From positions 1-59,505 of the forward strand of contig JAUZQZ010000024.1 in NCBI GenBank assembly GCA_030950745.1: a DNA stretch of 59,505 nt. Direction: 5' to 3'. Positions 10,932 to 59,385 of this stretch are shown one piece after another; the stretch's first letter is position 1; each line of letters opens with the position of its first letter. The position numbers were made by a program, and so were the translations under genes. A model generated the notes under the pieces. That model did not search any database and was not told where the DNA came from. It saw nothing but the letters and a program-made list of their open reading frames with translations. This DNA is from Mariprofundaceae bacterium (GTDB lineage: Bacteria; Pseudomonadota; Zetaproteobacteria; Mariprofundales; Mariprofundaceae).

Positions 10932-11044
10932 GCCGGGGCTATTCATAAATACTGCTGCGCCCTTACTTGTTCCTTTGTTCGCAAGAATTCGTTGCGAACA
11001 AAGGCCCTGCGCAATCATCACGGCGATTCATGAATAGTCCCGGC
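10932..11044. repeat. MITE-like palindromic repeat, copy A (113 bp)
   Basis: Termini GCCGGGGCTATTCATAAAT / ATTCATGAATAGTCCCGGC are inverted repeats with 2 mismatches. Central arms CCTTTGTTCGCAA-GAATTC-GTTGCGAACAAAGG. Fills the lpxK-ycaR gap. Confidence 0.85.
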
Positions 11045-13437: not shown

Positions 13438-13556
13438 GTACAGAGCTATTCAAGCAAGAGGCTAAACGGCTACCCTACCTTTCGAATTTGGCTGTATCCA
13501 ACGGGTACGGCACGCGCTTGAAAAATTCACTGGAAAAACCATTAGCTGCACAATCA

Positions 13557-27062: not shown

Positions 27063-27222
27063 CCCGGGCTACGCATAAATACTGCCGTGCCCTTGTTTGT
27101 TCCTTTTTTCACAACGAATCCTTGCTCAGGCGCCCGTAAGTACCGCTACGATCCTCCTCGTAAAAATCTGTTGCGAACAAAGATCCGGCACAATCATCAC
27201 GGCGATTCATGCGTAGTCCGGG
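27063..27222. repeat. MITE-like palindromic repeat, copy B (160 bp, longer centre)
   Basis: Termini CCCGGGCTACGCATAAAT / ATTCATGCGTAGTCCGGG. Relative to copy A, TT->CG in the left arm is matched by AA->CG in the right arm. Shares ACTGC.G.GCCCTT..TTGTTCC and TTGCGAACAAAG...CAATCATCACGGCGATTCATG blocks with A. Confidence 0.85.
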
Positions 27223-32514: not shown

Positions 32515-32546
32515 TTTGAACAACAGGAGCAGGGGAGGTGACGGTT

Positions 32547-32587
32547 GCCCCGGCGCAAGCATCACAGCGATTCATGAATAGTGCAGG
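32547..32587. repeat. Partial copy D of the same repeat (one end only)
   Basis: GCCCCGGCGCAAGCATCACAGCGATTCATGAATAGTGCAGG matches the right end of copy A (CCCTGCGCAATCATCACGGCGATTCATGAATAGTCCCGG). The other half is not recognisable. Confidence 0.7.
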
Positions 32588-32682
32588 CCAGATGCCGTAA
32601 CGCAGAACCGGGCTGCATGTAAGGCTTTCTCCGGGCCAGTCGCCGCATACGGTTTAATTAATGTTGCGGTGAGTGGTCCGGA

Positions 32683-35600
32683 TTAGCTGTTCATGGCACG
32701 GTGCAAGATTTGTACAAGATGTGTCTTCGAATACGGTTTGTGCAGGAAACCTGCGGTTTTCTTCTTCATGAAATCATCGGAGAGGTGCGTTTCACTATAA
32801 CCGGATGCCAGAATAATCGGAATATTCGGGCGCATGTCATGCATTTTGCGGCAGGCCTCTTTGCCATTCATACGTGGCATGTTCATGTCCAGCAGGACTA
32901 CTGTAATTTGATCCTTATTTTTTTGAAAAGCCTCCACACCGGCTTGACCATCTTCGGCCACGAGTACATCAAACCCCATATGTTTCAATAACGACGATGC
33001 TGTTTCGCGGACGATTTCCTCATCATCCACCACCAGGGCCACCCCCGAAAAACGAGTGTTTATTTCCGGGCCCTCCGAGTGTTGCACCTCGTCCACGTGA
33101 TATTCGACCTTCGGGAACAGGATTCTGAATGTTGTTCCCTCGCCTTCTCTGCTACGCAGATGGAGCGCTCCGTGATGTTGGCTGACGATGCCCAGCAAAG
33201 CACTCATGCCCAGCCCTCGTCCGGTGCGCTTGGTAGTGAAGAAGGGATCGAACATCCTTGTTTTTGTTTGTACATTCATACCGCATCCGTTATCGCTCAC
33301 CTCCAGAAATACATACTGACCTTCCTGCGGGCCCTCCGTACCGAGGCAAGCCTTCAGATAGCTTGCATCCCCCTGCATGACACCGGTTGTGATTGTAATG
33401 GAGCCATTTTCCCCTTGCATGGCCTCATTCGCGTTGGTGATAAGATTCATAAGCACCTGTTCCATTTGCGATTCGTCCGCTTCAATAGAAGGAAGGGATG
33501 TTTCGAGGTGTTTTTCCAACGTCACATTCTTGCCCAGCGACACCTCCAGCATAGCGGAAATATCGTTAACCAGAGTGGATATGTTCATGGGTTTGGCCAC
33601 ACGTTTTCCCTTACCGGCATAGGCAAGCATTTGATGGCATAGATTTCCCGCCCGTCGACTGCTGACCTCAATCTTGTGCAAATGTTCCTGCACCGCTGAT
33701 GTGCGTTCCAGCTTCATGCGCGCCAGTGAAGCATTGCCCAGAATCGCTGTCAGAATGTTATTAAAATCATGAGCGATGCCGCCTGCCAATACACCCAGAC
33801 TTTCCAGACGTTGTGTGTGCTCCAGCCTGGCTTGCTGTGCATATTTCTCCGTCACGTCAAAGTCGATCCCGACATGGTAATGTGTTTCTCCCATTTCCGT
33901 TACCGGCGCCACCTTGCGAATAACTGTTCGTTTACATCCCTTGGCATTCGGAACGGTGAATTCACCCTCCCACGATTCGCCCCGGTTCAAACGGGAGAGT
34001 ATTTTGCGGTAGTCGATATCATCCTTGTCACCACCGCGGAACTCCGCAGCATATCTGCCAAGCATCTGATCAGGTTCCAGTCCGGACTCCCGGGCGAAAG
34101 CAGAGTTGCAATAGGTGATTTTCCCTTCGGAGTTGGCTATGAAAATACCTTCCGGCGCGTGCTCCACCGCAACACGAAGGCGCCGGGCTTCCGCCTCGGC
34201 TTCCTTTCGTACGCTTAAATCATGAATAATGACTTCGATTGCAGGTCTTCCCTGATATTTGACCGGCAGCGCCGTCACCTCGGCATCGAATACGGATCCA
34301 TCCAGCCTTTGTAGCTTCTCTTCAACGGGGGGCATCGGTAGCTGGACTGCCTTGCCCATGCGCTTCATGACCATGGATTGCATATCCGCATGCACAAAAT
34401 TCAGTATGGGCATGCCTAACATGCTATGCACAGTAGCACCGAACAGTTTGGCTGCGGCGGCATTGGCGTACACAATTTTACCTTGGCAGTGCATCATAAC
34501 AGCATCGGGAATGACCTCCACAAGCTGGCGCAGCGTTTCTTCTTTTCTGTCATGTTCAATCGCGATAGCGGCAAGATTTGCAGCACTTTCGATCACTTGA
34601 ATCTCATGGTCTGACGGACTGCGGATGCCGGTATAATACATGGCAAAGGTTCCAAGCACGTTTTCCTCTGCATCCATCACAGGTTGGGACCAGCAGGCAC
34701 GCAGTCCGTGATGCAGTGCCATTTCCCTGTACGGCGCCCATAACGGATCAGTGGCAATATCCGCAACAACAACTCTTTTTTTGCGGTATGCCGCCGTACC
34801 GCAGGAGCCAACACAAGGGCCGATTTCCAAACCGTTTACCGCTTTGTTCCATGCCTCCGGCAGATGTGGGGCCGCACCATGCTGCAAACATTTCCCTTTA
34901 TGATTGAGCAACAGGATGGAACAAACCATGCCGGGACAAAATTCCTCAACACGAAACGCCAGTGTTTCAAGTACCGACTCCAGCCCTTGCTTGGCAGCGG
35001 TGATGGTTTTCAATACCTGGGACTGAAGATTTAACAGTTCCTCATGGTGCTTTCGTTGATCCGCTTCCTGCTGTAACTCCCGGGCAAGTCTGGAACTCTG
35101 GTGTTCATGTGTCAGGCTTCGGAGCACCATGGCATGATTACGGATAACGATGGCCCACATAGCCGCTGTGAATACGACAAGAATGATTCCGGTGGTAATA
35201 TAAACCCTGTCTGGTTGTGTCAGACACCAAATAATGACAGGGATCAGGGCGGGTAAGGAAAAAGCATTAAAAACAGTGATAGACGCGGCATATGAAGCGC
35301 TGGCACCGACCACCATGCCGCCAAGAATCAGGATAACGAATATCTGGTATTCCAGTGGTGATTGTTGCAGGAATATCACGCTTCCGGCACTCCAGATGGT
35401 GCCGGCCATAAAGGCAAGCCACACAAGTGTTCTATGGTGGCTTACAACGTATTTCATGGAAGCTTCCATGCGTTGCAATTTGCGTACCAGAAGTTGGCGT
35501 CCCAGCGTAAACATGACCATCACCGCTAGCCATGCAGTCAGCCACGTGTGGTTTACAACATCCCACAGCATGGAAGTCAGCAAGCTGGCGGCGATTAACG

Positions 35601-35709
35601 AAGCAACAAAGGCAATGGGTGACTGTGCATATAAAAGGCGCAGCGTTTCCACGGAAGCGAATGCATCCATGCCGCCGGGGGCCATGTTTTTACGATCATT
35701 GTCAGTCAA
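32683..35709 (-). CDS. Hybrid sensor histidine kinase / response regulator (multi-TM, GAF, 2x PAS, HisKA, HATPase_c, REC)
   Basis: About 6 N-terminal TM helices and a GAF-like segment (ADIATDPLW...GLRACWSQPV). H-box GIAHDFNNIL, N box NLITNANEA, G boxes DNGCGM / GRGLGMS. Receiver domain VVDDEE...LLDMNMP...HKPY. TTG start follows AAGGA. Confidence 0.9.
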   Translation of the reverse strand: MTDNDRKNMAPGGMDAFASVETLRLLYAQSPIAFVASLIAASLLTSMLWDVVNHTWLTAWLAVMVMFTLGRQLLVRKLQRMEASMKYVVSHHRTLVWLAFMAGTIWSAGSVIFLQQSPLEYQIFVILILGGMVVGASASYAASITVFNAFSLPALIPVIIWCLTQPDRVYITTGIILVVFTAAMWAIVIRNHAMVLRSLTHEHQSSRLARELQQEADQRKHHEELLNLQSQVLKTITAAKQGLESVLETLAFRVEEFCPGMVCSILLLNHKGKCLQHGAAPHLPEAWNKAVNGLEIGPCVGSCGTAAYRKKRVVVADIATDPLWAPYREMALHHGLRACWSQPVMDAEENVLGTFAMYYTGIRSPSDHEIQVIESAANLAAIAIEHDRKEETLRQLVEVIPDAVMMHCQGKIVYANAAAAKLFGATVHSMLGMPILNFVHADMQSMVMKRMGKAVQLPMPPVEEKLQRLDGSVFDAEVTALPVKYQGRPAIEVIIHDLSVRKEAEAEARRLRVAVEHAPEGIFIANSEGKITYCNSAFARESGLEPDQMLGRYAAEFRGGDKDDIDYRKILSRLNRGESWEGEFTVPNAKGCKRTVIRKVAPVTEMGETHYHVGIDFDVTEKYAQQARLEHTQRLESLGVLAGGIAHDFNNILTAILGNASLARMKLERTSAVQEHLHKIEVSSRRAGNLCHQMLAYAGKGKRVAKPMNISTLVNDISAMLEVSLGKNVTLEKHLETSLPSIEADESQMEQVLMNLITNANEAMQGENGSITITTGVMQGDASYLKACLGTEGPQEGQYVFLEVSDNGCGMNVQTKTRMFDPFFTTKRTGRGLGMSALLGIVSQHHGALHLRSREGEGTTFRILFPKVEYHVDEVQHSEGPEINTRFSGVALVVDDEEIVRETASSLLKHMGFDVLVAEDGQAGVEAFQKNKDQITVVLLDMNMPRMNGKEACRKMHDMRPNIPIILASGYSETHLSDDFMKKKTAGFLHKPYSKTHLVQILHRAMNS

Positions 35710-35732: not shown

Positions 35733-35897
35733 GCTGAACTATTCATGAATCACCGTGATGATCGCGCAAGGCCTTTGTTCGCAATGGATCTCGCGGAAGG
35801 AGGCCGTAGCCGTGCATACGGAGGACCGACGAGGGATTCGGTGCGGACCAAGGAACAAGTGAGGGTGCGGCAGCATTTATGAATAGTTCAAGCTAGC
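35733..35897. repeat. MITE-like palindromic repeat, copy C (opposite orientation, long form)
   Basis: TGAACTATTCATGAATCACCGTGATGATCGCGCAAGGCCTTTGTTCGCAA ... AAGGAACAAGTGAGGGTGCGGCAGCATTTATGAATAGTTCAAGCTAGC matches the reverse complement of copies A and B end to end. Fills the fliP-to-kinase gap. Confidence 0.85.
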
Positions 35898-38902: not shown

Positions 38903-39607
38903 TTAAGGGCTCTCATAGAGCACAATATCCACGCGCCGGTTACGTTTGCGTCCGAATGGGGTGGCCTCGGTAGAAACAGGCCGTGAAGGACCATATCCCG
39001 CCATGGAAAGCCGTATCGGATTCACACCTTCATTTTCCAGTACATGCAAGACTGATGCCGCTCTGGCCAGCGACAGACTCCACGGATCCGGCCAGGGGCT
39101 GTTTTCAGGCAATGCGGATGTATCCGTATGTCCTTCGATACGGATATTCCCGGGGGAAGATGCCAGCATTCTTGCCAGGCGTTTCATGGCTTTGAGGTGC
39201 TGTGGGCTGAGTTTGGCTTGTCCCGCTTCAAACAGGACTGCATTACCCACACGCAGGATCAGACGGTTTTTGAGGATAATCGCGTTGACTTTATGCTCCA
39301 ATGTACTGTTTTTGAGCATCACTCTGGAATTTTGGCGCATGGCCAGCATTAACTCGCGTGGAGTGGCCATTTGTTGTAGTCCTGATGGTTCGATTATCTC
39401 CGGTTCAGTTTTTTCGCCTGCATTTAATACCATGACCACCTTGGGAAAGTAGCTGGAAATATCCGACAGGCTGGTTTGATCCAGTGTGGACATGGATACA
39501 AGCAGGATAAAGAACGTCAGCATCAGGCTGACCAAGTCGGCAAAGGTCCCCATCCACGATTCGGTATCGGGAAGGAATTCGGGTTCCTTTTTTTTCTTGC
39601 GTGTCAT
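38903..39607 (-). CDS. motB: Flagellar stator protein MotB (canonical Asp plug/TM)
   Basis: SWMGTFADLVSLMLTFFILLVSMS (Asp aligned to E. coli MotB D32) plus an OmpA-like C-terminus (IRIEGHTD...SLSLARAASV...NRRVDIVL). Confidence 0.8.
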   Translation of the reverse strand: MTRKKKKEPEFLPDTESWMGTFADLVSLMLTFFILLVSMSTLDQTSLSDISSYFPKVVMVLNAGEKTEPEIIEPSGLQQMATPRELMLAMRQNSRVMLKNSTLEHKVNAIILKNRLILRVGNAVLFEAGQAKLSPQHLKAMKRLARMLASSPGNIRIEGHTDTSALPENSPWPDPWSLSLARAASVLHVLENEGVNPIRLSMAGYGPSRPVSTEATPFGRKRNRRVDIVLYESP

Positions 39608-40383
39608 TACGGATGAACCGGTGGTGTGACCGCAGGACGTGATGGTGGGTTCAACACGGGTTTGGCTCGTTGTTCCTGTTTGTCAGTGACGGGGCGGAAT
39701 CTGAGTGTAATTTCAACCCTACGGCTTAAATTTTTACCATTCTCAATCAAAGGGTGTTGATCGCCCATACCGGCAACAATCATACGGCTACGGGCAACGC
39801 CCCGGCTGGCAAGCGCCTTAAACACACTCATAGCGCGTGCCGCTGAAAGCTCCCAGTTGGAAGTATAAAGAGTACCTTTCGTAGGCATCTCATCCGTATG
39901 GCCCTCGATGCTGATTTCAATAATTCCAGGCCGCGAAAATAATTTAGCGAGTGCATCCATCAAAGGATTCGCCGATGGAGAGAGCGAAATTTGGCCGGTG
40001 GCAAATACAATTCTTTCGGGCAGGCGTACGCGCACAGTCTCCTGGTCTAGGGGCAGAATGTGAATGGCATCCTCAAGCCCCAGTTCCTTGGCGACATCCG
40101 TCAATGCTTTGGCGGTTCGTTTGGGTGCCTTGGAACCGTCTACGAGATCACGTGCAGGTAACGAAGGCCCTTTACCCTGACTCAAGTTAGCGCCGCGTGG
40201 GAGAGAGCTGAAGGTGCCTGCCAGTGAGCCCAACGCTGCCAAACGTTTATCCTCTACAATGACAGCCATGGATGTCAGCAGAATAAAGAAGGCCAGCATC
40301 TGCATCATCAGTTCAAGAAACAAGGCTCCCGCAACATCTTTTTCCCGTGGTATCGGGTCGGGTTTCTTTTCGCGTTTGGCCAA
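39607..40383 (-). CDS. MotB-like stator paralog with Glu in place of the channel Asp
   Basis: ALFLELMMQMLAFFILLTSMA, with Glu 8 residues before FF where MotB has Asp. OmpA-like C-terminus (ISIEGHTD...WELSAARAMSV...SRRVEITL). TAATG overlap with the downstream motB. Confidence 0.7.
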   Translation of the reverse strand: MAKREKKPDPIPREKDVAGALFLELMMQMLAFFILLTSMAVIVEDKRLAALGSLAGTFSSLPRGANLSQGKGPSLPARDLVDGSKAPKRTAKALTDVAKELGLEDAIHILPLDQETVRVRLPERIVFATGQISLSPSANPLMDALAKLFSRPGIIEISIEGHTDEMPTKGTLYTSNWELSAARAMSVFKALASRGVARSRMIVAGMGDQHPLIENGKNLSRRVEITLRFRPVTDKQEQRAKPVLNPPSRPAVTPPVHP

Positions 40384-41321: not shown

Positions 41322-41350
41322 AAAAAAAGCGGGGGACTACGCCCCCGCTT
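41322..41350 (-). terminator. Rho-independent terminator after flgE
   Basis: Minus strand AGCGGGGG-CGTAGT-CCCCCGCT followed by TTTTTTT, about 20 nt downstream of the flgE stop. Confidence 0.8.
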
Positions 41351-43547: not shown

Positions 43548-45251
43548 TTAAACGTGGATGCTCAAGCGGCCATGGCCGCTTGACGTTGTTTGCGTGTCTG
43601 TCCGAATGGATGTCGGTGATGCGTCGGAAGACAATCCATCCATGGCGCCCCATTCATGCCTGCCGTTAAATTGTTGGTCTGCTCCGGAGCTATCCTGTGA
43701 TCCTGTACTCATGGAAAATTGACCCAGAGAAAGACCTTGCTGTTCCAGTGCATGACGTAACTGTGGTATATTTTGTTGGATGACCTGTTGTGAGACGGTT
43801 TGTTCGGCTGTGATATGTACCATCAATTGCTTGGCCGCATCGGTTTGTAACGAGATATGGATTTTCCCCAAATGTGCCGGTTCCAACTGAATATCAAGGC
43901 GTGCATGACCATTTTTTGCTGAATGTGCAATTTCGTTCATAGCATCCATGACCCGGAGATGTTGGAAAGAACGATGTAGTGTAGTGCTTTGCGGGTTGCT
44001 TCGGGATATGGATGAATCTGTCTGAACCAGTCCTGCAAAACGGTTGTCTGCCCCGGCCTGGTTACCCTGCTGATTTGTTTGCTGATCAGCAGGGTTGCCG
44101 TATTGTGCATCACCGGGGGTCAGTCCGTGCGCCAGTGTACGGGAGAAAGCATTTGCATGTTGCGCCTGATTCTGATTATGGCGTATGGGGGACTCTGGAC
44201 GTCCATCAATATTGTGGGCATGTGCCGTCGGGTTTTGTGATGCTGATGTGAAAGCTTTCCCTTCATTGAGAGTCGTCTGGGTAGTAGACAGGTTGGTCGT
44301 AGCGGCTTTGTTGCCTTTATGTTTCCGTGTAGACTTGGCTTCATGCAATTCCGAACTGAGGGCATTGGGTATGACGTTTGTTTCCCGTACGGTTTCTTTC
44401 GGAATGTTCTCTGCATTGATTTCCGGGGAGAGATTAGCAGCGAGTCCGGAGGCTGTGGGTGCAGATAGCATAGCTTTACCAGCGGTTGCTTCTGGTTTGA
44501 TTGTTGATGATATTTCAGGGTTATTCAGTGCATGCGGGATAAGATATGCGCTCTGCTTTATATGGTTCTTTCCTTCCCCTACGACGGGTTTCTGGTCAGC
44601 CGGATTATTGTTGACCAATAGCTCGGGAGAATCAGGTAGTTTTTGTGCCACTTTCTGTTCTTTCAGTCCGGCCTCTTTTGCACCAGTTTCCTGCTCGTCC
44701 AGGGAACCTTGTCTGACATGATCCTGTATCGGCATGGAGAGTTCGGCAGCTTGTGCATGTTTACGGGATGTTGCCTCCTCTGCATTGGTATGTTTCTGCT
44801 GGAGTATTCCACTGAGTTTCTTTTGCTGAACTTCTACCGTTTGGATACCGGTTTTTGAGGTTTGTATGAAGGTGACCGGGACGGCGAGACCCACAGCAGC
44901 ATTCTGGTCTTTCAGTCGACGGACATGGGTTAGACGTTCTCCATCAGACGCAGCCAGGGCCGACTTTTTATTGTCTTGTGCCGTTATTTTTTTTACATCT
45001 TCAATATCAGATATTATGGCACCATTTTTTCCACGGTGTGCCAAAACTGACTTTCCTGTGGTTTGTAGGCCTGCACCAGCGCTGCGATGCGCTTTCCCTG
45101 TTTTGTTTTTTATTTGATGGTTTTGACCATGTTGACTATCAAACAGAGCCATCAGAGGTGCAAATAGTCCGTTCTTTCCGGTATGCCCACCTTTGCCCGC
45201 AATAGCGCTAACGCCTTTTACGGCTCCGCCAACTTGAATTTGTTCACTCAT
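43548..45251 (-). CDS. fliK: Flagellar hook-length control protein
   Basis: 567 aa, low-complexity Q/T/N/A-rich, with a C-terminal Flg_hook-like core (ARLDIQLEPAHLGKIHISLQ). Sits upstream of flgD. Confidence 0.75.
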   Translation of the reverse strand: MSEQIQVGGAVKGVSAIAGKGGHTGKNGLFAPLMALFDSQHGQNHQIKNKTGKAHRSAGAGLQTTGKSVLAHRGKNGAIISDIEDVKKITAQDNKKSALAASDGERLTHVRRLKDQNAAVGLAVPVTFIQTSKTGIQTVEVQQKKLSGILQQKHTNAEEATSRKHAQAAELSMPIQDHVRQGSLDEQETGAKEAGLKEQKVAQKLPDSPELLVNNNPADQKPVVGEGKNHIKQSAYLIPHALNNPEISSTIKPEATAGKAMLSAPTASGLAANLSPEINAENIPKETVRETNVIPNALSSELHEAKSTRKHKGNKAATTNLSTTQTTLNEGKAFTSASQNPTAHAHNIDGRPESPIRHNQNQAQHANAFSRTLAHGLTPGDAQYGNPADQQTNQQGNQAGADNRFAGLVQTDSSISRSNPQSTTLHRSFQHLRVMDAMNEIAHSAKNGHARLDIQLEPAHLGKIHISLQTDAAKQLMVHITAEQTVSQQVIQQNIPQLRHALEQQGLSLGQFSMSTGSQDSSGADQQFNGRHEWGAMDGLSSDASPTSIRTDTQTTSSGHGRLSIHV

Positions 45252-45262
45252 ACTGTGGATGG

Positions 45263-45279
45263 AGCATGGACAGGGCCAG
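45263..45279 (-). promoter_or_regulatory. Sigma-54-like motif abutting the fliK start codon
   Basis: Minus strand CTGGCCCTGTCCATGCT (TGGCCC-N5-ATGC). 12 nt lie between the GC element and the fliK ATG, so the predicted +1 is 1 nt before the ATG. No SD is present. Confidence 0.3.
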
Positions 45280-45330: not shown

Positions 45331-45366
45331 GGGAAATAATTGCCGATTAACCGGCAACTATTTCCC
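45331..45366 (-). terminator. 15-bp stem-loop after the channel gene
   Basis: GGGAAATAGTTGCCG-GTTAAT-CGGCAATTATTTCCC on the minus strand (one G-U pair), 5 nt after the stop. No U-tract, so it may be a processing or stability element rather than a terminator. Confidence 0.4.
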
Positions 45367-45371
45367 TGGAT

Positions 45372-48224
45372 TCATTCAGTAATGACTATCAGTTCCTCAA
45401 TATCCTCACGATACTCAGTCCATGAATGGCGCGAAACCGGATTGCCGAAGGGGTTGATGATAATCTGGTATTGTCGCAGACAGGAATAATCCTGTTCTCG
45501 TGGAAAAAATTTACGAATCTTGTCTTGCATGGGGTCATGCCACACAAACCCAGACTTCAGACGGTAACCAATCCAGATAAAGCCTCGTTGCAACAGGTCG
45601 GCGAACAGTGCTTCGGCATTTTCCGGCAGCTCTTCCGTGACAGTCAGGGTCTTGATATCCATATCATCATCTTCACCGGTATCACTCATTAGTACATCAA
45701 TAGCACGGCGAAGGGTGCGCTGTAGTTCGTAAGCCTCGGGACTTTCCGATGAGTACATATAATAACTCGTGTGTGCGATGTATGTGCCATAAAACTCATC
45801 CGGTACGGTGACATGGACCTCGGTGGGTAATTCAAAGCGATCCAGTTCTTCCTGTAGCAGACGGGCCTGCTCACGATTGCTCAGAAGCGGAAAAATTTGT
45901 GGTGTATCACCATTCTCCCGAACAATTGTGACCAGATGTGAGAGTACGGTTGCAATCGCACTATAAGCATGATCTTTCAAATGCTGGGGTCGCGAAAGCA
46001 GGATACGATCTGCGTCCTTCACATACTCACGCAAGCGATCCATATCGGTGAAATCCCAGCGGATGAGCTCGAAATGGATGCGCTCGGTTGCTCCGGACAT
46101 TTCAGCAATTCTGCGGCGCAGGTAAACGATGCGGTCAATATGTTCATCACGGGTGATATCATCAATAATTTTAACGTTGATGGTATGAAAGTCCTGAAGC
46201 AGTCGTTTGAGCAGCAAGGGAAGCGCACCAACCCAACCCGTAATGACCAGATTCAATACTTCAGCATTTTGGGCTAACTTTAGTTCAGTCGAGCTGGCCG
46301 GTATGTGATTGTTTTCGGCATTCTGTTCTATATTGTTTTCATATTCTTTATATGTGTAAAGTAATTCTCCGTGGATATCCCGGGAATGAATGGCTAACCC
46401 CAGAACAGATGTGATTTTTATTGGAGCGCGTTCGGCAAGTTTATAGAGTGGATGGGGACATCCCTGATCATCGGTCAAAGCCACGAGTGTGATGCCACGG
46501 GATATCATGCTTGCTGCGACACGTGTCACGTCCAGGCTGGTTTTTTCACCTTTCATGCTAAGGAATACCTTGCCGTCACGAGTATCCACTTCACCTTCCC
46601 ACTCGCAAATCTGCAATGCCGATTCTTCGGTACGTCCGGGAATCATCAGGCGTTCCATTACCTGATCGAAGTCCTGGTAGGCGAGAATGTTGCGCAGCAT
46701 GTTGGCACGCACTTCCGCGTGCGATAGCACGACAGTGGGTTTATCGTAGACGTTTTTGTTATCCCAGCCGATTTGCAGGATGTGATGATGGGAGGATAAT
46801 TGCGGCTCAGCCAGACTGGGAGATGCATAGTTCAGATAGATGTCCGGGTTAATCTTGCGAATGGCGAGCAACGAAAAGGTACTGTGTGATAACTGAATCG
46901 CTTGCGAGACGTTATCTGGCACATTGATAATGGCCTGACGAGCATGATTCAGGTTGACGCGTTTAAGTGAATCGACCTCCTGTACGTTGCCCCAGCGGTA
47001 GGATACCCAGGGGTAGGCCAGCAGTTCCTTCGGCGTTTCGGCGCTTTCGCCCAGAAGTACCAGTTTTAGCCGGGAGAAATGACGTTCAGAGATGGTACGC
47101 AATTGTGCCAACGTGTAAGGCGCAACCTCGGACCATCCCAGCATGACCATGTGATTGGTAATATTCAGTCGTTCATTCCGGAGTTTTTGCATCAGTCCGG
47201 AAATGATCTGGGAGCCGATGCCGATGAAGAAAGCAAAGATAAAAACACCAGTGATGACGGCTGTGATGGAAACAATGGCCATCCTGGCATTGGGTGGAAA
47301 GAGAATCGAGTTTCCCGGGTCGGTAAACAGACGGAAAGAAAACCATATCTGGGCAAACAGGGTGCCATCGGTGGCGTCCACGATGCCGTCTTGCGTGTAG
47401 TCGTAGGGGGGCATGAAGAAATGTCCGACCACGCCACCTGTGATAGCCAGTACGCCCAACAGCAGGATAATCAGATTGACTTCCTGCATAAATTGTCCTT
47501 CGGCCACGACCTCTTTGAGGTTGCGTAAGATGATCGTCCATGGACGAAGTAGTCGTATCAGGCGCAGGGCACGCAGGGCGCTTCCATGAGGAATAACGGC
47601 GAATGCCGGAACCATGACAACGGTCGCAATCAGATCAATCCACCAGTAAATCCACTCACTGATACGGTCTCTGGTGGTCTCGAATTTCATGTGCCGCATA
47701 AGCACCAGACGAATGGCCAACTCGACGGAGAAGAAGATGATAACGACCCACATCAGGGTGTCCTCGGCGAAGAAGGAGAGGAGAATAAGCAGTGAGATGA
47801 GCATGCCATAGGTGGGTGAATACATGGCACTTTGCAAATCAACATAACGAAATACACGCAGTGTTCGCATCAGATAAAACGCGCGCAGCAATCGTGCCGC
47901 TGCCGCATCTTCGGCATTCAGCGGGATGTTAAACACTGTAATCAGAAGGGAGGCGACACCAATAATATCAAGTGCCAGAAACAGTGCGTCCAGTTTACTG
48001 TTCAGAGAGGAACGGTAGGGATTGGTGTGGATCTTATAACGTATAATGGCGATGCGCAGGCCAAGCTCAATGACAAAAATAGTAAATAAAATTCCGGCCA
48101 GTATCTGGTTATGTATAAACGACGCAGCAATCAATCCAAGCATGATAATGCCGAAGCGGGGATGCATCAGTACCCATTCAAGATGATGGTAAAGCAAAGG
48201 GCGGTCTTGTAGAACGGATTTCAT
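45372..48224 (-). CDS. Putative ion channel: two S1-S4 voltage-sensor-like units, a CASTOR/POLLUX-like pore, and a tandem RCK-like cytoplasmic region
   Basis: Two arginine-repeat helices (RLLRAFYLMRTLRVFR; LRALRLIRLLR), pore loop WFSFRLFTDPGN, post-S6 NHMVMLGWSE, a second Rossmann-like start NLVITGWVGA, and about 600 cytoplasmic residues. Confidence 0.6.
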   Translation of the reverse strand: MKSVLQDRPLLYHHLEWVLMHPRFGIIMLGLIAASFIHNQILAGILFTIFVIELGLRIAIIRYKIHTNPYRSSLNSKLDALFLALDIIGVASLLITVFNIPLNAEDAAAARLLRAFYLMRTLRVFRYVDLQSAMYSPTYGMLISLLILLSFFAEDTLMWVVIIFFSVELAIRLVLMRHMKFETTRDRISEWIYWWIDLIATVVMVPAFAVIPHGSALRALRLIRLLRPWTIILRNLKEVVAEGQFMQEVNLIILLLGVLAITGGVVGHFFMPPYDYTQDGIVDATDGTLFAQIWFSFRLFTDPGNSILFPPNARMAIVSITAVITGVFIFAFFIGIGSQIISGLMQKLRNERLNITNHMVMLGWSEVAPYTLAQLRTISERHFSRLKLVLLGESAETPKELLAYPWVSYRWGNVQEVDSLKRVNLNHARQAIINVPDNVSQAIQLSHSTFSLLAIRKINPDIYLNYASPSLAEPQLSSHHHILQIGWDNKNVYDKPTVVLSHAEVRANMLRNILAYQDFDQVMERLMIPGRTEESALQICEWEGEVDTRDGKVFLSMKGEKTSLDVTRVAASMISRGITLVALTDDQGCPHPLYKLAERAPIKITSVLGLAIHSRDIHGELLYTYKEYENNIEQNAENNHIPASSTELKLAQNAEVLNLVITGWVGALPLLLKRLLQDFHTINVKIIDDITRDEHIDRIVYLRRRIAEMSGATERIHFELIRWDFTDMDRLREYVKDADRILLSRPQHLKDHAYSAIATVLSHLVTIVRENGDTPQIFPLLSNREQARLLQEELDRFELPTEVHVTVPDEFYGTYIAHTSYYMYSSESPEAYELQRTLRRAIDVLMSDTGEDDDMDIKTLTVTEELPENAEALFADLLQRGFIWIGYRLKSGFVWHDPMQDKIRKFFPREQDYSCLRQYQIIINPFGNPVSRHSWTEYREDIEELIVITE

Positions 48225-48235
48225 TAAATTTCCTT

Positions 48236-48260
48236 GCTAGCTTGAATTATTCATGAATCG
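48236..48260. repeat. Solo terminal fragment E of the same repeat
   Basis: GCTAGCTTGAATTATTCATGAATCG matches the reverse complement of the outer end of copy C (GCTAGCTTGAACTATTCATAAAT) at 23 of the 25 compared positions. Confidence 0.6.
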
Positions 48261-48666
48261 GTTCAGGGCAGTGAGGTGCAATCTGCGGCAGTGTATTCGT
48301 GGCGGCCTTCCAGCCCAAGGCACGATCTATGTTTATGGAGGCTACGAAAATCAAAGCAGCAGGCGTTTCCGGAATGGTGCACAGGAAATGGTGGGTTCGG
48401 GATGTGCGGAAGTATATTTCCTCAAGGTGACGTTCAAACGGTCTGCCCTGTTGTGCGGATATCAGGTCATCAATTCTGGAGATCACTGTCCCGCGAAACA
48501 TTTTTGCTGAAGCATCCATCAGCATTTCCACATAGGCATCCGTGAAATAAGCCACTTCGTGGTAGGCCGCAAGTGTCATGCCTGTATCCAGATCAAGAAT
48601 TCCGGCAGCTATGTGTCCCGGTTGTTTATGCACCAGATCATGACAGATTTCCCACAGGGGATTCAT
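48247..48666 (-). CDS. Hypothetical soluble protein (possible Roadblock/LC7-like fold)
   Basis: ORF on the same strand, 22 nt upstream of the channel gene. ATG 48666 (TTG 48714 is possible). Sequence pattern compatible with alpha-beta-beta-alpha-beta-beta. Last codons and stop lie in a repeat remnant. Confidence 0.45.
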   Translation of the reverse strand: MNPLWEICHDLVHKQPGHIAAGILDLDTGMTLAAYHEVAYFTDAYVEMLMDASAKMFRGTVISRIDDLISAQQGRPFERHLEEIYFRTSRTHHFLCTIPETPAALIFVASINIDRALGWKAATNTLPQIAPHCPEPIHE

Positions 48667-48694
48667 GTTGAAAGTTGGCCTGGTCAGATATCCC

Positions 48695-49339
48695 TTAGGG
48701 GTTGAGTGAAGCAATTTTTTGCGTTAGTGCCTGACTTATTTTTACAGCCAACTCCGGTGACAGGAAGGAAAGAATCTTGCCGACCTTTTTTTCATCCATA
48801 CGTGAAAACATTTTAACCACTATGAGTAAATCCATCCGTGCAATTACGAGGGCGGCCTTATCTGCCTTCATACCTTCATATACAGCAGTCAAACGCTTGA
48901 TTTTCTTGTTACTAATACTTTTTTCCTGCGCCAGCATGTCTTGAATACGTGTTTCCAGTTCCTCCAGATCAGCAATCCGTTGCGCAGCCTTCTTTTCCAT
49001 TCCCACAGTAGCCTGTTCACGTTTGTCGAGTTCTCTACCCCGTTTGTCCAGTCGATTCTTGATTTTGCGCAAATTGAGCAGGGATTCCCGTTCTGTATCG
49101 CTGATATGATCACTTTCCGGCATTATTGATGCATGAGCCTCGGCAATCAGAGAGGGATTCGAAGCGGTATGTGCTGTTTTCTTTGCCTGAGGTTTCATCC
49201 GTGGTGTTGCCACGGCTGCATTGGCTATCTGAATAACATGATGGGTACTTTTATCTCCAGGCCACAGTGATAGCACGGTACGCGCCAGCACCAGGGCTGT
49301 TAAAGTAAACAGCAGAAATAAAATTCGGCGCGTATTCAT
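48695..49339 (-). CDS. MotE/YlxF-type (MgtE_N-like) flagellar protein
   Basis: N-terminal TM/signal, coiled-coil region, and C-terminal AAVYEGMKADKAALVIARMD...MDEKKVGKILSFLSPELAVKISQAL. Position after fliJ matches B. subtilis ylxF. Confidence 0.55.
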   Translation of the reverse strand: MNTRRILFLLFTLTALVLARTVLSLWPGDKSTHHVIQIANAAVATPRMKPQAKKTAHTASNPSLIAEAHASIMPESDHISDTERESLLNLRKIKNRLDKRGRELDKREQATVGMEKKAAQRIADLEELETRIQDMLAQEKSISNKKIKRLTAVYEGMKADKAALVIARMDLLIVVKMFSRMDEKKVGKILSFLSPELAVKISQALTQKIASLNP

Positions 49340-49354
49340 GAGTCCGACAGACGC

Positions 49355-49792
49355 CTAGATGCTAGCGGCAACGATGGATGCGGTTCGGTCGTCGTCCAGT
49401 CGTTGCCGACGTCGTTCCAGATTGCGTCGTTCACAAGCCTGCAGGCGACTGTCCATTTTACCAAATACCTTGCTCTGACGATCATGTTCCAGCCAGTGAT
49501 CAAGTAACGTCTGTTCCTGTAAATGTAGTTGTTCGAGGGATTCTTCCAGCCGTTTCATTTGTTCACGTTGCTCGACAATGATTTCATTAAATACGACTAA
49601 CAGGCTTGCCTGTGCACCGACTTTTAATGTCTGTTCACGCTGTTTCCCAAGCTCTTTCAGGTGTGCTTCCGTTTCCTCAATATGCTGGATCAGCTTTTGT
49701 CTTTGTCGGCTTAGTGCTGTCAGCTCATGTTGGGCTCGGTTGCGGGAATTCTCCGAGAGTTTTTGTAAAATTTGATGGGGCATCAATCGCAT
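49355..49792 (-). CDS. fliJ: Flagellar export chaperone-escort FliJ
   Basis: 145-aa all-helical, charged protein immediately after fliI. Confidence 0.6.
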   Translation of the reverse strand: MRLMPHQILQKLSENSRNRAQHELTALSRQRQKLIQHIEETEAHLKELGKQREQTLKVGAQASLLVVFNEIIVEQREQMKRLEESLEQLHLQEQTLLDHWLEHDRQSKVFGKMDSRLQACERRNLERRRQRLDDDRTASIVAASI

Positions 49793-51864: not shown

Positions 51865-52863
51865 TTAAACCATTTCCTCATTGCCACCGAGAGTGATGGC
51901 ACCTTCGTCATCCAGTTTGCGGACAGTTTTGAGAATATTCTGCTGGCTTTCTTCCACATCAGCCAGTTTTAATGGTCCCATCACTTCCATGTCTTCACGC
52001 ATAATTTCTGCCGCACGTTTTGACATATTGCCAAAGAAACCGTCGGCAATTTCGTCCGATGCCCCTTTAAGCGCTTTGACCAGATCGTCGGATGAAATAT
52101 GTTTGAGAATGGACTGAATGTCGCGGTCGGAAAGTTCGTTCAGGTCTTCAAAAACAAGCAACAGACGATCCACCTGCTGGAATAATTCTTCATCTTTTTC
52201 CTGCAATCGTTCAAGGATGGGTTTGGCAACAGACTTATCAAGTTTTTTGAGGATTTCAACGACATTGACCATGCCGTCGAATGATAATCCCGAGGATCCC
52301 TCCATGCCCGATAGTTCTTCTTCCAGTGTTTCCTCAATGTCGCGCACCAGATCACTGGGGACGGTTTCAATTTTGGACATTCGTACCACCACGGACATCT
52401 GCATATCTTCCGGCAGAAGAGCAATGATTCGGCTGGCCACGGAGCTTTCGATATTACCAAGAATCAGGGCGACGGTTTGAGGATGTTCATTTTCCACATA
52501 TGGTTTAATCATTTCCGGTTTAAGACGTGACAGTTTTTCCCAGATGCTGAGTTTCCTCGGAGCATCCAGGCCTGCCATAATCTGGGTCCTGCGTTCTTCA
52601 TCCACGGCACATTTTAGGAGGCTGAGGACATCCTTGCGCGAGGAACGCAACAGAGGGTCATCAGAATGATGCATGTCCAGATATTCCTGTACAACTGTAT
52701 GCAGTGTTTCCGCCTCGATTTTGCCGAGATCGGACATGCGTTGTCCGAGTTGGATCAGTGTTTCATTATTCAGGTCGCGTACGATGGGAACCGAGGCTTC
52801 CGGTCCCAGTGCATAAAGCAGAATGGCTGTTTTATCCAGCCCGCTTAGCTTGGCGCTTTTCAT
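51865..52863 (-). CDS. fliG: Flagellar motor switch protein FliG
   Basis: 332 aa. LSGLDKTAILLYALGPE..., the EHPQTVALIL motif, and a C-terminal torque helix region. Confidence 0.95.
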   Translation of the reverse strand: MKSAKLSGLDKTAILLYALGPEASVPIVRDLNNETLIQLGQRMSDLGKIEAETLHTVVQEYLDMHHSDDPLLRSSRKDVLSLLKCAVDEERRTQIMAGLDAPRKLSIWEKLSRLKPEMIKPYVENEHPQTVALILGNIESSVASRIIALLPEDMQMSVVVRMSKIETVPSDLVRDIEETLEEELSGMEGSSGLSFDGMVNVVEILKKLDKSVAKPILERLQEKDEELFQQVDRLLLVFEDLNELSDRDIQSILKHISSDDLVKALKGASDEIADGFFGNMSKRAAEIMREDMEVMGPLKLADVEESQQNILKTVRKLDDEGAITLGGNEEMV

Positions 52864-54530
52864 GTGTGTTCAATCCATTCACTGACCACCCGTGAAGCAC
52901 GATCGGGTTCATTGGTAATAACCTGTCTGGCGTGTTCTGTGGATTCCAGGCGGGCATAGGCGGCGGGAGACATGGCGGGCAAAGCCTGTGGTACAAATGA
53001 TTCACCTCCTGCAGCTGTTCCACCCGCACCCTGACTGGTAATACGTTGTGATAATGGCCGAAGTACGAACCATGCCAGGAGCAATAGCGCAAGGCCGGCC
53101 AGCCCGTAACGCGCGATATCCATATAGAGCGCCCTATTGGCCGCTGTTTCCAGCGTACCTGTATCAGCATGACTGGAAATGTCCATGAGCGGCAGGCTTT
53201 GAATCTCCACGGAATCCCCCCGATCTTCATCGTAGCCAATTGCACGTTCAATGAGACCTTGCAAGGTCTTCAGTTCCTGCTTGCCACGTGGCGTAAAGGT
53301 AGAGGCATCACCGGGTTTCTTGAATGTGCCGCCGACGATGGCTGCCACGGAGATCTTTTTGATTCCACCTGAAGGAATGATGCGATGTTCGGTGGTAGAG
53401 CTGATTTCGTAATTGGTGGTTCGTTCGTTTCTGTTGGCATTTTCCTGCGGCGGCGTGGTTGCGGGAGATGTAGCCGGGGGATTTGCGGCATTGTTGGTTG
53501 CAGCATTGGCGCCGGGAGTGTTGGAGGCGGTTCCCGGCACGCCAATAGGCGAACTATCTACACTTTTATGGCTTTCAATCGTCTCCTTCTGGCTGCGAAT
53601 TACCTGTTCATCCGGATTGAATCGCTTGCTGTTCTGCTCGACCATCTGGCGGTTAATATCCGTCGTGACCCGTACCACGGCCTGACCCGTGCCAACGACC
53701 TGTTCCAGCATGCCGGTAAGCCTTGCTTCCAAACGGCGCTCCATTTGGGTCTGGACATCCTGCAACGTCTGGCCGGCATTCATGGGGGCCTGTTCCTCGT
53801 TGTTTGAGAGCAGGTTTCCGCTTGCATCCACAACCGTGACTGTTTTGATATCCAGACCTTGTACGCTGGCAGCTACCAGACTTTGAATGGCCATTACATT
53901 CTGTTTGGTCAGTCGCTGGCCACCGGCAAGTTTGAGCATCACTGAAGCAGAAGCCTTACGTTCACGATCTGCAAACGCGGAATCTTTGGGTAAAACCAGT
54001 TGTATACGTGCAGCGGCAATGCGGGGCATAACCTCAATAGTGCGCGCAAGCTCTCCCTGGAGCGCCCGTTGATAATTAACCTTTTGCGTAAAGTCACTGA
54101 TACCGAATTCCCCTTTTTTGTCGAACAATTCGAAACCCATCGCACCACCGGGTGTGATGTCCTGTCCGGCCAGTTTTAAACGTACGGCATAGACTTGGTC
54201 GGCAGGCACCAATACGGTTCCTTCACCCTGCAGTCGGTAAGGGATGTGTTCCTTCTGCAGGTAATCAACGACAGCGGATGCATCGGTTGCCGCCATGCCG
54301 GCATAGACAGGTTGATACGGTGTTTTCGAAGACCACATCACCATGCTGATAAAGGCGGCCAGCATGAGACTGCCCGCGATGAACAGCAGCAATCGCCGAT
54401 TGTTCAGCAGCAATGCCGTAAACTGTGGTTTTACAGGTGCGCCCGGTAGAGCCTGTGATGACGCATTGCCTGCGATGCCGGTAGCTACGGAGACATTCTG
54501 TGCATGAGATGGAGTCAGTATGTCAGCCAT
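52860..54530 (-). CDS. fliF: Flagellar MS-ring protein
   Basis: 556 aa with YscJ/FliF family sequence and two TM segments. Confidence 0.95.
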   Translation of the reverse strand: MADILTPSHAQNVSVATGIAGNASSQALPGAPVKPQFTALLLNNRRLLLFIAGSLMLAAFISMVMWSSKTPYQPVYAGMAATDASAVVDYLQKEHIPYRLQGEGTVLVPADQVYAVRLKLAGQDITPGGAMGFELFDKKGEFGISDFTQKVNYQRALQGELARTIEVMPRIAAARIQLVLPKDSAFADRERKASASVMLKLAGGQRLTKQNVMAIQSLVAASVQGLDIKTVTVVDASGNLLSNNEEQAPMNAGQTLQDVQTQMERRLEARLTGMLEQVVGTGQAVVRVTTDINRQMVEQNSKRFNPDEQVIRSQKETIESHKSVDSSPIGVPGTASNTPGANAATNNAANPPATSPATTPPQENANRNERTTNYEISSTTEHRIIPSGGIKKISVAAIVGGTFKKPGDASTFTPRGKQELKTLQGLIERAIGYDEDRGDSVEIQSLPLMDISSHADTGTLETAANRALYMDIARYGLAGLALLLLAWFVLRPLSQRITSQGAGGTAAGGESFVPQALPAMSPAAYARLESTEHARQVITNEPDRASRVVSEWIEHT

Positions 54531-59188: not shown

Positions 59189-59385
59189 ATCCGCGTATTA
59201 CGCAAGACTTATGCCGAATTTAGCCCGCATAATTCACAAATGCTATCATACCATTGCTTGTGTCTTTGCCCGCAACAAATCCCTCGCCCATCAGGGGACG
59301 CTCTCTTGCGCAAGCACAATTCGCCTGATCAGTCGTCCGCATGCACAGCTACGGTTTTTCTTCTAAAGAGCCACTTGCAAAACTC

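Follow-up and report, generated by a model that had tools for sequence, protein, structure and literature searches.

The window, a 59,505-nt stretch of DNA from a Mariprofundaceae bacterium, raises the question of why a gene for a putative ion channel lies inside a core flagellar operon and what its product would do there. On the minus strand the genes follow in the order fliF-G-H-I-J, a ylxF-like gene, a 139-155 aa ORF, a 950-aa ORF, fliK, flgD and flgE. Both ORFs between the ylxF-like gene and fliK, described in an earlier note on this DNA, are present, and their flanks are backed by Pfam/NCBIfam.

The operon segment and the partner-channel junction

49355-49792, minus strand: fliJ (Pfam/NCBIfam)
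48695..49339, minus strand: ylxF/FlbB-like gene (MgtE_N-like; MgtE_N E 8e-4, FlbB collar protein E 3e-6, both weak)
48247..48666, minus strand: small partner gene (139 aa, ATG at 48666; the ORF reaches a TTG at 48714, 155 aa)
48237..48260, minus strand: terminal-sequence fragment of the window's MITE-like repeat, over the partner's last codons and stop
45372..48224, minus strand: channel gene, an ORF of 950 aa (VSD1, VSD2, pore, RCK1, RCK2)
45331..45366, minus strand: 15-bp perfect hairpin without a U tract, directly 3' of the channel stop (z -3.1 for the 124-nt gap)
43548..45251, minus strand: fliK (hook-length control), 3' neighbour of the channel (Flg_hook E 2.9e-19), followed by flgD and flgE

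The channel gene starts at an ATG, with AAGGA just before it. Gaps of 22-30 nt had been described around the two genes, which is correct for ylxF-partner (28 nt; with the TTG as partner start the two genes overlap) and partner-channel (22 nt) but not for channel-fliK, where the gap is 120 nt. The hairpin in this last gap was not called as a terminator in the terminator scan, a canonical terminator being found only past flgE at 41332-41346. Other non-flagellar genes are also present in the flagellar cluster, for example one encoding a 1008-aa hybrid kinase.

The MITE-like repeat end reported in the partner-channel gap was recovered as a 24-nt match to the repeat end (pairs I7 and I8), and the 13-mer CGATTCATGAATA is seen only at repeat ends and at this fragment. 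The idea that the repeat end marks the arrival of the two genes by insertion did not survive comparison with related loci. The slot between ylxF and fliK is filled by the channel, without the partner, in most Mariprofundus-type genomes, including PV-1, and the partner is limited to the window's own subclade, where it is present only in the order ylxF-partner-channel (7 loci). Loci L006 and L007 lack the fragment at the orthologous site, and the closest relatives, in which the channel is 94% identical, carry both genes without it. Thus, the fragment is a later, recent footprint of ∼16 nt.

Tandem voltage sensors, pore and gating ring

47835..48185, minus strand: VSD1, extra N-terminal S1-S4 unit, residues ∼14-130
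47505..47834, minus strand: VSD2, pore-proximal S1-S4 unit, residues ∼131-240
47190..47489, minus strand: pore domain, residues ∼246-345 (S5, pore helix WFSFRLF, filter, S6)
47310-47324, minus strand: filter T301-D-P-G-N305
46290..47159, minus strand: RCK1, residues ∼356-645, starting NHMVMLGWSE (profile matches to DMI1, BK, MthK and CASTOR RCK1)
45375..46289, minus strand: RCK2, residues ∼646-950, starting NLVITGWVGALP (structural match to gating rings)

Pfam searches for Ion_trans, Castor_Poll_mid, TrkA and Robl_LC7, proposed as a check on the two window proteins, remained below threshold, with no gathering threshold passed by the channel, and support for the identity of channel and partner comes from profiles, homologs and structure. 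Ion_trans matches were obtained in 6 of 40 channel homologs (best E 9e-14), and Ion_trans, Slo-like_RCK, TrkA_N and BK_channel_a matched in homologs and distant relatives. The peptides on which the channel assignment had been based, RLLRAFYLMRTLRVFR, LRALRLIRLLR, WFSFRLFTDPGN, NHMVMLGWSE and NLVITGWVGA, are all found in the channel translation, and they are far from chance since the arginines, FxxExxxR, the S3 aspartates and D302, P303 and N305 are invariant in the 40 homologs. The AF2 model of the channel (pLDDT 80.7, pTM 0.80) has 10 TM helices and a pore helix, together with two Rossmann domains.

The proposed tandem S1-S4 units are borne out by sequence and model. In VSD1, S2 contains F50xxE53xxxR57, S3 contains D86 and S4 contains R111, R114, Y117, R120, R123 and R126, all invariant in the 40 homologs (48-85% identity); the corresponding VSD2 residues, F165xxE168xxxR172, D197 and R218, R221, R224, R227 and (R234), are likewise invariant. 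The two units are homologous (hhalign probability 97%, E 1.1e-10, 93 columns), VSD1 is modelled as four helices (pLDDT 72-91), and in the PDB profile search the BK stretch from S3/S4 to RCK1 aligns with channel residues 179-467. VSD1 is an added duplicate and VSD2 the pore-proximal sensor; single-VSD relatives align from family-profile position ∼140-160 onward. It is conceivable, if rather doubtful, that only VSD2 senses voltage and that VSD1 is a degenerate duplicate with a structural or lipid-anchoring function, or one on which proteins such as the stator, FliL or Che proteins dock. Such degeneration would fit the Tyr in place of Arg at the third S4 position, the failure of a VSD1-only profile to match any VSD in the PDB by sequence and the existence of relatives that do without the unit, but the five S4 arginines and the full FxxExxxR and S3 Asp set remain invariant in VSD1 at 48-85% identity, which would be difficult to account for unless charge movement were under selection.

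Downstream of the two sensors, W294, F295, F297, R298, D302, P303 and N305 are invariant in the 40 homologs, and a DPGN/SPDN motif is common to about 100 distant relatives. Confidence in the monomer model is low over the pore region (pLDDT 38-72). The suggested likeness of the pore and post-S6 segment to CASTOR/DMI1 was strengthened: DMI1 is the top PDB profile match (E 5e-4), ahead of BK, MthK and CASTOR, NHMVMLGW aligning with NHVLILGW of DMI1, and the filter TDPGN shares an x-D-x-G-N pattern, in place of TVGYG, with AD(S/A)GNHA of the plant nuclear-envelope channels CASTOR/POLLUX/DMI1. The two RCK domains are likewise supported by Foldseek matches to Slo- and CASTOR-type rings, the structural match with the CASTOR, DMI1 and BK gating rings covering about 640-650 alignment columns, and the single-chain double-RCK ring is closer to CASTOR/DMI1 (TM 0.67-0.71) than to BK (0.55-0.57). 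RCK1 has a weak Slo-like_RCK match and a Rossmann-type beta-alpha pattern in the model, and RCK2 has an acidic loop, GEDDDMD, at ∼851-857. By sequence, RCK1 and RCK2 are not significantly similar (hhalign E 0.019), although their betaA-alphaA motifs do align. The protein differs from CASTOR/POLLUX/DMI1 in being bacterial, in having no match to Pfam Castor_Poll_mid and in carrying two full VSDs, whereas for CASTOR 4 TM segments are predicted and no VSD has been described (PMC6697748). Sequence identity is about 13%.

Full-length Foldseek matches are headed by Slo2.2 and Slo1 (E 1e-15 to 1e-13), in which VSD, pore, RCK1 and RCK2 also occur on one chain, and in the model S4 and S5 are joined by a short connection, which points to a non-swapped arrangement. 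The protein differs from the Slo family in lacking a K+ filter and S0, in having a second complete VSD and in coming from a prokaryote. These matches, together with Slo-like_RCK and BK_channel_a in relatives and the name 'voltage-gated potassium channel' that one database gives the M. micogutta ortholog, could indicate a Slo/BK-type K+ channel acting in repolarisation or K+ efflux instead of Ca2+ or cation entry. We consider this improbable: the K+ signature TVGYG is absent from the channel, whose TDPGN filter has an invariant Asp, the ring is nearer CASTOR/DMI1 than BK (TM 0.7 and 0.55), and che-type paralogs have a true Kv channel, with TVGYGD, encoded beside them, pointing to a division of labour. 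In addition, CASTOR, with the filter AD265S(A)GNHA, is reported to be Ca2+-selective, D265 being essential (PMC6697748). By analogy, the pore may be Ca2+-permeable, a tentative reading, as Ca2+ selectivity is extrapolated from a filter in which just D, G and N, 3 of the 5 positions, agree with CASTOR.

Two other groups resemble parts of the protein. Two-pore channels (TPC1-3) also have two VSDs per polypeptide but are dimers of chains in which the complete 6-TM unit occurs twice (VSD-pore-VSD-pore), whereas the order here is VSD-VSD-pore with one pore domain. Bacterial 6TM-DPGN-RCK2 proteins (∼800-900 aa; named members Myxococcota) have the pore motif WW[SA]FRQ[VI]QDPGN and the VSD2-pore-RCK layout in common with the channel (E 1e-39 to 1e-15 against the family profile) but possess a single VSD; these proteins are themselves undescribed and are annotated 'ion transporter' or hypothetical. 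We are highly confident of an architecture of tandem VSDs, a CASTOR/DMI1-like pore and a single-chain double-RCK ring, a layout that is undescribed; no literature on this channel was found.

Conservation of the flagellar and chemotaxis neighbourhood

The 166 channel homologs recovered all belong to Zetaproteobacteria where named and form several paralog clades within this class, and the 75 genome loci with a channel are labelled almost exclusively Zetaproteobacteria or Mariprofundaceae. Flagellar or che genes adjoin the channel on the same strand in 53 of 66 informative loci. In 34 of these ylxF or the partner lies upstream, with a ylxF-like gene immediately 5' of the channel or partner, 9 have only channel-fliK/flgD/flgE, and 10 have channel-(Kv)-cheY, the che-type arrangement being channel-[Kv channel]-cheY-cheA-cheW. 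Adjacency to motility genes persists through rearrangements, as in the Ghiorsea type and in the ylxF-channel-cheY hybrids of L058 and L066. Presence of the channel in the core flagellar operon, pointed out for this one locus, is conserved across the class and not a one-off.

Some observations count against a motility link. In the remaining 13 informative loci no motility genes adjoin the channel, the neighbours being PGI, CCA-adding enzyme, GGDEF-EAL and others, and two loci of single-VSD relatives, both from MAGs, have no motility genes nearby. Both would be expected of a general ion-homeostasis channel with no motility role, whose operon position is a chance gene order that became frozen or just supplies a convenient promoter, as would the hairpin and 120-nt gap ahead of fliK and the non-flagellar genes elsewhere in the cluster, such as the hybrid kinase. 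This explanation appears unlikely because the association recurs in at least three arrangements (after ylxF; before fliK without fliHIJ; before cheY) and does so in paralog clades that are separate; a chance placement would not be expected to arise anew or persist through such rearrangements, and at the che operon the channel is joined by a second voltage-gated one, Kv.

A role in assembly would explain the location of the channel between the fliH-I-J/ylxF export-ATPase module and fliK, flgD and flgE. Flagellar export is PMF-driven, and the channel could adjust the membrane potential locally, or the supply of ions, to suit the type III export gate at the rod/hook stage; the ylxF-channel-fliK position is exact and conserved, within the basal-body/hook stretch of the cluster. 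However, sister paralogs adjoin cheY-cheA-cheW-MCP, genes of signalling and not of assembly, and we know of no export apparatus that needs such a channel, making this role very unlikely.

The partner appears to be a lineage-specific accessory in comparison, its homologs being 144-148 aa and 55-90% identical, with a C-terminal PHCP motif and several His/Cys invariant in 6 sequences; it is not a core part. Its weak AF2 model (pLDDT 56; alpha-beta-beta-alpha-alpha-beta-beta-beta-alpha) agrees with the Roadblock/LC7-like pattern noted previously, giving Foldseek matches to Roadblock/LC7 3kye (E 1e-5), MglB and LAMTOR (to 1e-3) at TM 0.53-0.65, the likeness to MglB/Roadblock-LC7 lying in a predicted alpha-beta-beta-alpha-beta-beta-beta-alpha fold. 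Robl_LC7 was not matched at the sequence level and no MglA-like GTPase gene adjoins the partner. With low confidence, the model suggests a Roadblock/LC7 fold, and the protein is possibly regulatory.

A proposed link between membrane voltage and swimming

NaVBP of alkaliphilic Bacillus is a voltage-gated channel that is reported to act in motility and chemotaxis (Ito et al. 2004, as cited in PMC4225499). This member of the NaChBac family offers a precedent for a motility link but has a single VSD, is Na+-selective and lacks an RCK ring. To our knowledge, its gene is not located in a flagellar or che operon.

The best overall explanation, which we favour modestly, is a voltage- and ligand-gated cation channel tied to motility. 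Four copies of the 950-aa protein would assemble into a channel of the voltage-gated/RCK-gated superfamily. Voltage would act on it via the S4 arginines, and the RCK ring would respond to a ligand from the cytoplasm, probably a cation (Ca2+, for example). Four filter aspartates would make the pore non-K+-selective and possibly Ca2+-permeable. Gene neighbourhood makes it somewhat probable that the channel is functionally linked to, and part of, the Zetaproteobacteria motility system, one paralog presumably being made with basal-body and hook genes (fliJ-ylxF-channel-fliK) and another with cheY-cheA-cheW, in many cases with a canonical Kv channel alongside. A change in membrane potential or energy state would then be turned into an ion signal, and this would modulate swimming or signalling in chemotaxis. 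Encoded as it is inside flagellar and chemotaxis operons, the channel points to a coupling of swimming to membrane voltage in the iron-oxidising marine Zetaproteobacteria.

Architecture of the channel

The 950-aa protein encoded at 45372-48224 on the minus strand is strongly supported as a subunit of the tetrameric-channel type, its domains being ordered VSD-VSD-pore-RCK1-RCK2. A database search returned 166 homologs, those with organism names all belonging to Mariprofundus, Ghiorsea or other Zetaproteobacteria and labelled at most 'ion transporter' or 'voltage-gated potassium channel'. The AlphaFold2 model (pLDDT 80.7, pTM 0.80) contains 4 + 4 + 2 TM helices with a pore helix and, after these, two Rossmann-type domains. 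VSD1 and the ring are modelled with high confidence, VSD2 with moderate and the pore with low confidence, which is to be expected for a tetramer subunit modelled alone. Foldseek aligned the model with Slo2.2 and Slo1 over their full length (E 1e-15 to 1e-13, ∼970-1075 alignment columns), while the gating ring matched those of CASTOR/DMI1 (6o7a, 6o6j, 7vm8) at target-normalised TM 0.67-0.71 and BK rings at 0.55-0.57. These matches bear out the double RCK-like region read from sequence in the earlier note, all of whose quoted peptide motifs are present in the window. RCK1 and RCK2 did not match one another significantly by hhalign. A PDB search with the window protein as a single sequence gave nothing useful; the family profile matched DMI1 (E 5e-4, NHMVMLGW opposite NHVLILGW), BK S3/S4-RCK1 (E 3.5e-3), MthK and CASTOR RCK1 (E 0.014). 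Pfam and NCBIfam searches of the window's proteins gave only sub-threshold matches here, the channel passing no Pfam threshold. Ion_trans had no match in the window protein; it was recovered from 6 of the 40 family members at a best E of 9e-14, and from distant relatives at E 1e-5 to 5e-10. Slo-like_RCK was found in 10 of the 40, and Castor_Poll_mid gave no match at E ≤ 1 in the window protein and none at E ≤ 0.01 in the 40 members. An acidic loop in RCK2, GEDDDMD (45666-45686, minus strand; channel residues ∼847-857), lies between a model helix and strand and recalls the BK calcium bowl, but is only partly conserved in the family consensus.

By its residues, each S1-S4 unit has a complete charge-transfer centre and retains its gating charges. 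In an alignment of 40 homologs (48-85% identity to the window protein), F50xxE53xxxR57 in S2, D86 in S3 and R111, R114, Y117, R120, R123 and R126 in S4 of VSD1 are invariant, with Y117 interrupting the every-third basic series, as are F165xxE168xxxR172, D197 and S4 R218, R221, R224 and R227 of VSD2. Basic residues at each third position of S4, and a centre formed by an aromatic-x-x-acidic S2 motif and an S3 Asp, are found in both units, the Shaker equivalents being F290xxE293xxxR297/D316. Sub-alignments 14-130 and 131-240 match each other (hhalign probability 97%, E 1.1e-10), and the tandem S1-S4 units recognized in the earlier note are therefore a true internal duplication. A VSD1-only profile retrieved only spurious GPCR TM matches from the PDB. 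That VSD1 is non-sensing is somewhat unlikely, the Tyr within its S4 series being weighed with the invariance of the charge-transfer and S4 residues.

The WFSFRLF-T-D-P-G-N segment of the pore is almost invariant in the 40-sequence alignment, D, P and N being invariant. The predicted CASTOR filter is AD265S(A)GNHA, and LjCASTOR is reported to be Ca2+-selective and Ca2+-regulated, with D265N dead (PMC6697748). The D, G and N positions of TDPGNSI are common to A-D-S/A-G-N-H-A of CASTOR/POLLUX/DMI1, although the flanks differ, and the double-RCK ring is of the CASTOR type; together with the DMI1 profile match, the common filter positions lend some support to the likeness of pore and post-S6 segment to CASTOR proposed earlier. 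Given a predicted ring of four Asp302 residues and the CASTOR-like filter, a non-K+, possibly Ca2+-permeable pore is reasonable to infer. Slo/BK channels also combine VSD, pore and tandem RCK1-RCK2 in a single chain, as found here by Foldseek and in agreement with the model secondary structure, but the K+ signature TVGYG of Slo/BK filters is absent, and a Slo-like K+ channel is improbable. Two-pore channels differ in having two full 6-TM (VSD+pore) repeats per chain, whereas here a single pore helix and filter follow VSD-VSD.

An exhaustive profile search extended the family to 878 relatives at E < 1e-3. Following the Zetaproteobacterial full-length clusters are more tandem-VSD paralogs with filters DPGT, DPGS or DPGV, Zetaproteobacterial where named, and then a large group of 800-900-aa proteins, Myxococcota where named, which carry the pore motif WW[SA]FRQ[VI]QDPGN or ...ES[PA]DN and match Ion_trans, Slo-like_RCK, TrkA_N and BK_channel_a. 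This single-VSD group begins aligning only at VSD2, which makes VSD2 the ancestral, pore-proximal sensor and VSD1 an addition. An unplaced metagenomic relative of the DPGN type (P0206) likewise has two VSD-like units.

The flagellar cluster and the partner gene

The cluster, ordered from ORFs and Pfam/NCBIfam matches, runs on the minus strand in fla/che style with a sigma-54 activator first and flagellar genes after.

Features of the cluster around the channel gene
52860-54530, minus strand: fliF, then fliG, fliH and fliI
49355-49792, minus strand: fliJ
48695-49339, minus strand: ylxF/FlbB-like MgtE_N protein, directly after fliJ
48247-48714 from TTG, or 48247-48666 from ATG, minus strand: partner ORF, after the ylxF-like gene
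45372-48224, minus strand: channel ORF, 950 aa, after the partner
45331-45366, minus strand: 15-bp perfect hairpin (GGGAAAUAGUUGCCG / CGGCAAUUAUUUCCC) without a U tract, directly after the channel stop
45263-45278: weak sigma-54-like site TGGCCCTGTCCATGCT from the consensus scan, just before the fliK ATG
43548-45251, minus strand: fliK, after the channel, with flgD and flgE next
41332-41346: canonical terminator, after flgE

The spacing of ∼22-30 nt given in the earlier note holds between ylxF and partner (28 nt) and between partner and channel (22 nt), but not between channel and fliK, which are separated by 120 nt. Possible roles of the hairpin within this gap are attenuation, stabilising the RNA or, as a palindrome, binding a protein. 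No canonical terminator was called from fliF to flgE, and sigma-70 and terminator scans showed no enrichment. Sigma-54 and sigma-28 consensus matches were not over chance, and the TGGCCCTGTCCATGCT site is therefore a weak lead only. Beyond the terminator lie motA, motB, fliL, fliM, fliP and onward. Two successive MotB-like genes follow motA (38903-39607 and 39607-40383, minus strand), the first OmpA/MotB-like as judged by sequence and the second with MotB_plug and OmpA Pfam matches. Embedded between fliP and fliR of the export cluster is a gene for a 1008-aa GAF-PAS-histidine kinase-receiver hybrid (32683-35709, minus strand), flanked by copies or partial copies of a MITE-like repeat (35738-35895 and 32523-32607), making a repeat-associated insertion plausible there.

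This repeat family, ∼115-160 nt long with the terminal motif CGATTCATGAATAGT, is intergenic in the window.

Copies of the MITE-like repeat
Near 10930-11047, 27063-27222 and 35738-35895: full copies
4699-4761, 13518-13582, 32523-32607 and 59224-59286: partial copies

A further 24-nt match to the repeat terminus at 48237-48260 had been read in the earlier note as a possible sign of an insertion which brought in partner and channel together. That origin is rejected, as the two closest loci (L006 and L007, channel 94% identical) carry both genes and read ...GAACCGATTCATATCTGA at the same spot where the window has ...GAACCGATTCATGAATAATTCAAGCTAG, only ∼16 nt being new. The fragment is a recent, later footprint which rewrote the last codon and stop of the partner.

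The partner is a real gene with homologs of 144-148 aa that are 55-90% identical. It has no sequence-level family, with no match in Pfam (Robl_LC7 included), NCBIfam or PDB sequences, and the Roadblock-like fold suggested earlier is a tentative assignment from structure: in a weak model (pLDDT 56, built from 6 sequences) the order of secondary-structure elements is that of Roadblock, and the top Foldseek matches are all Roadblock/LC7, MglB or LAMTOR (E 1e-5 to 1e-3, TM 0.5-0.65). Partner residues C24, H52, H96, H109, H148 and C149 (155-aa numbering), including the C-terminal PHCP, are invariant in six fairly close and hence weakly informative sequences, and could form a metal or redox site, unusual among Roadblock proteins. 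The partner is restricted to the subclade of the window itself (channel identity ∼70% or more), at 7 loci and always as ylxF>partner>channel; these include the sole metagenome match, a wider word-index search and metagenome scan having found same-context copies only. A locus with a 71% identical channel (L009) is without it. The partner is thus a lineage-specific accessory, not core.

Genomic context across Zetaproteobacteria

Flagellar and che proteins were mapped, and exceptions inspected, around 75 loci from one genome per species, nearly all labelled Zetaproteobacteria or Mariprofundaceae and including M. ferrooxydans PV-1, M. micogutta and M. erugo. Of these, 66 were informative.

Context of the channel gene at informative loci
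34 loci: ylxF or partner immediately upstream on the same strand, usually with fliK-flgD-flgE downstream
9 loci: channel>fliK-flgD-flgE with fliHIJ absent upstream (for the most part of Ghiorsea type)
10 loci: channel>cheY-cheA-cheW-MCP or channel>Kv (∼48%-identity paralog)
13 loci: no motility neighbours

The channel gene is strongly supported as sitting at a conserved place in motility operons, with the same strand and the conserved adjacency across genomes that are expected of a flagellar operon member. The ylxF/fliK slot named in the earlier note is occupied by the channel in most Mariprofundus-type genomes, whereas the partner is confined to one subclade. Recent horizontal transfer of the channel gene was rejected because a GC of 0.46-0.51 is inside the window range and the gene is class-wide. 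Copies beside ylxF/fliK (fla-type) and beside cheY-cheA-cheW (che-type) can occur in one genome, for example in M. erugo (L037 and L049), and two of the 34 ylxF-type loci (L058 and L066) are hybrids, fliH-I-J-ylxF>channel>(Kv)>cheY-cheA. In a rough NJ tree, used only for clade placement since some distances are saturated and branch lengths unreliable, the context types fall in different clades and ylxF>channel also appears on basal branches. No motility genes were near the single-VSD relatives at the two loci looked up, both in MAGs. The comparison therefore suggests a motility link that belongs to the Zetaproteobacterial branch with tandem VSDs alone and that was kept or re-made through several rearrangements.

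The 13 non-motility loci lie near PGI, the CCA-adding enzyme, GGDEF-EAL genes, PilZ together with a kinase, or another copy in tandem. They speak for a housekeeping gene carried along as a passenger, a reading left unlikely by the recurrence of the motility association in several arrangements. The position of fliK, flgD and flgE downstream of the channel in most loci with enough flank would suit a part in PMF-driven flagellar export or in building the hook, but che genes adjoin the channel in other loci, and such a part is decidedly improbable.

Two further arrangements were observed. One Mariprofundaceae genome carries two full-length channel paralogs (L062 5965-8823 and 9014-11881; 952 and 955 aa) in tandem on the same strand, outside any motility cluster. 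A more distant Zetaproteobacterial tandem-VSD paralog (P0140, L084 5509-8508; 999 aa, filter DPGT) adjoins a GGDEF sensor and lies divergently from three genes for PilT/PilU-type ATPases, a neighbourhood that may link it to type IV pilus motility.

A second voltage-gated channel and the proposed link to motility

The che-type paralog often has behind or facing it the gene of a canonical Kv channel of 340 aa. The filter of this channel is TVGYGD, its S4 reads RLFRLIRIIRL, and it matches Kv4, Kv2 and KvAP with E values of 1e-18 to 1e-10.

Kv channel genes
L001, 6815-7837, minus strand
L050, 6692-7630
L066, 9007-9939
L072, 2296-2805

In some genomes Kv lies on the same strand between the che-type channel and cheY-cheA-cheW, and two different voltage-gated channels therefore head one chemotaxis operon. 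An excitable module that depolarises and repolarises would call for just such a pair.

The large channel would be gated dually, by membrane voltage and a cytoplasmic ligand, would conduct through a non-K+, possibly Ca2+-permeable pore and would act in motility control. A role in Bacillus motility and chemotaxis is reported for a voltage-gated Na+ channel in work cited in PMC4225499. An excitable-membrane motility module, comprising a tandem-VSD Ca2+ channel and the che-operon Kv and joined to a bacterial DPGN ancestry of CASTOR/POLLUX/DMI1, is doubtful when taken as a whole. In such a module, the tandem-VSD, Ca2+-permeable channel would supply a depolarising or signalling current and Kv would repolarise, so that shifts in potential reflecting energy state in O2/Fe(II) gradients might be converted to fast ionic transients read either by the Che pathway or by the motor of the flagellum. 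As a corollary, the plant CASTOR/POLLUX/DMI1 channels would descend from prokaryotic DPGN stock. If it exists, the module would parallel in prokaryotes the steering of cilia by voltage and Ca2+, and no bacterial voltage-gated Ca2+ channel tied to taxis would have been identified before it.

All parts of the channel are from known superfamilies; unusual are the tandem sensors, the presence in bacteria of a pore of CASTOR type, and the setting among motility genes. Literature searches found no paper on the channel, the VSD-VSD-pore layout or ion channels encoded at conserved places within flagellar or che operons, and those on bacterial CASTOR homologs found nothing describing the channel. Reports of voltage-dependent Ca2+ fluxes and of Ca2+ effects on bacterial chemotaxis go back a long time but, to our knowledge, name no channel. 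For bacterial electrophysiology, the protein offers a specific candidate that can be cloned and that is pointed towards motility by its gene neighbourhood. For channel biophysics, it poses the problem of coupling two sensors in each subunit, eight in the tetramer, to one gate also bearing an RCK ring. In evolutionary terms, CASTOR/POLLUX/DMI1 and animal Slo channels are tied to a large, unstudied bacterial DPGN-pore family. The motility question is testable, as Mariprofundus ferrooxydans PV-1 is cultured and carries an ortholog (L013). Zetaproteobacteria need to keep their place where O2/Fe(II) gradients are steep, and motility linked directly to voltage would amount to energy taxis of a new kind.
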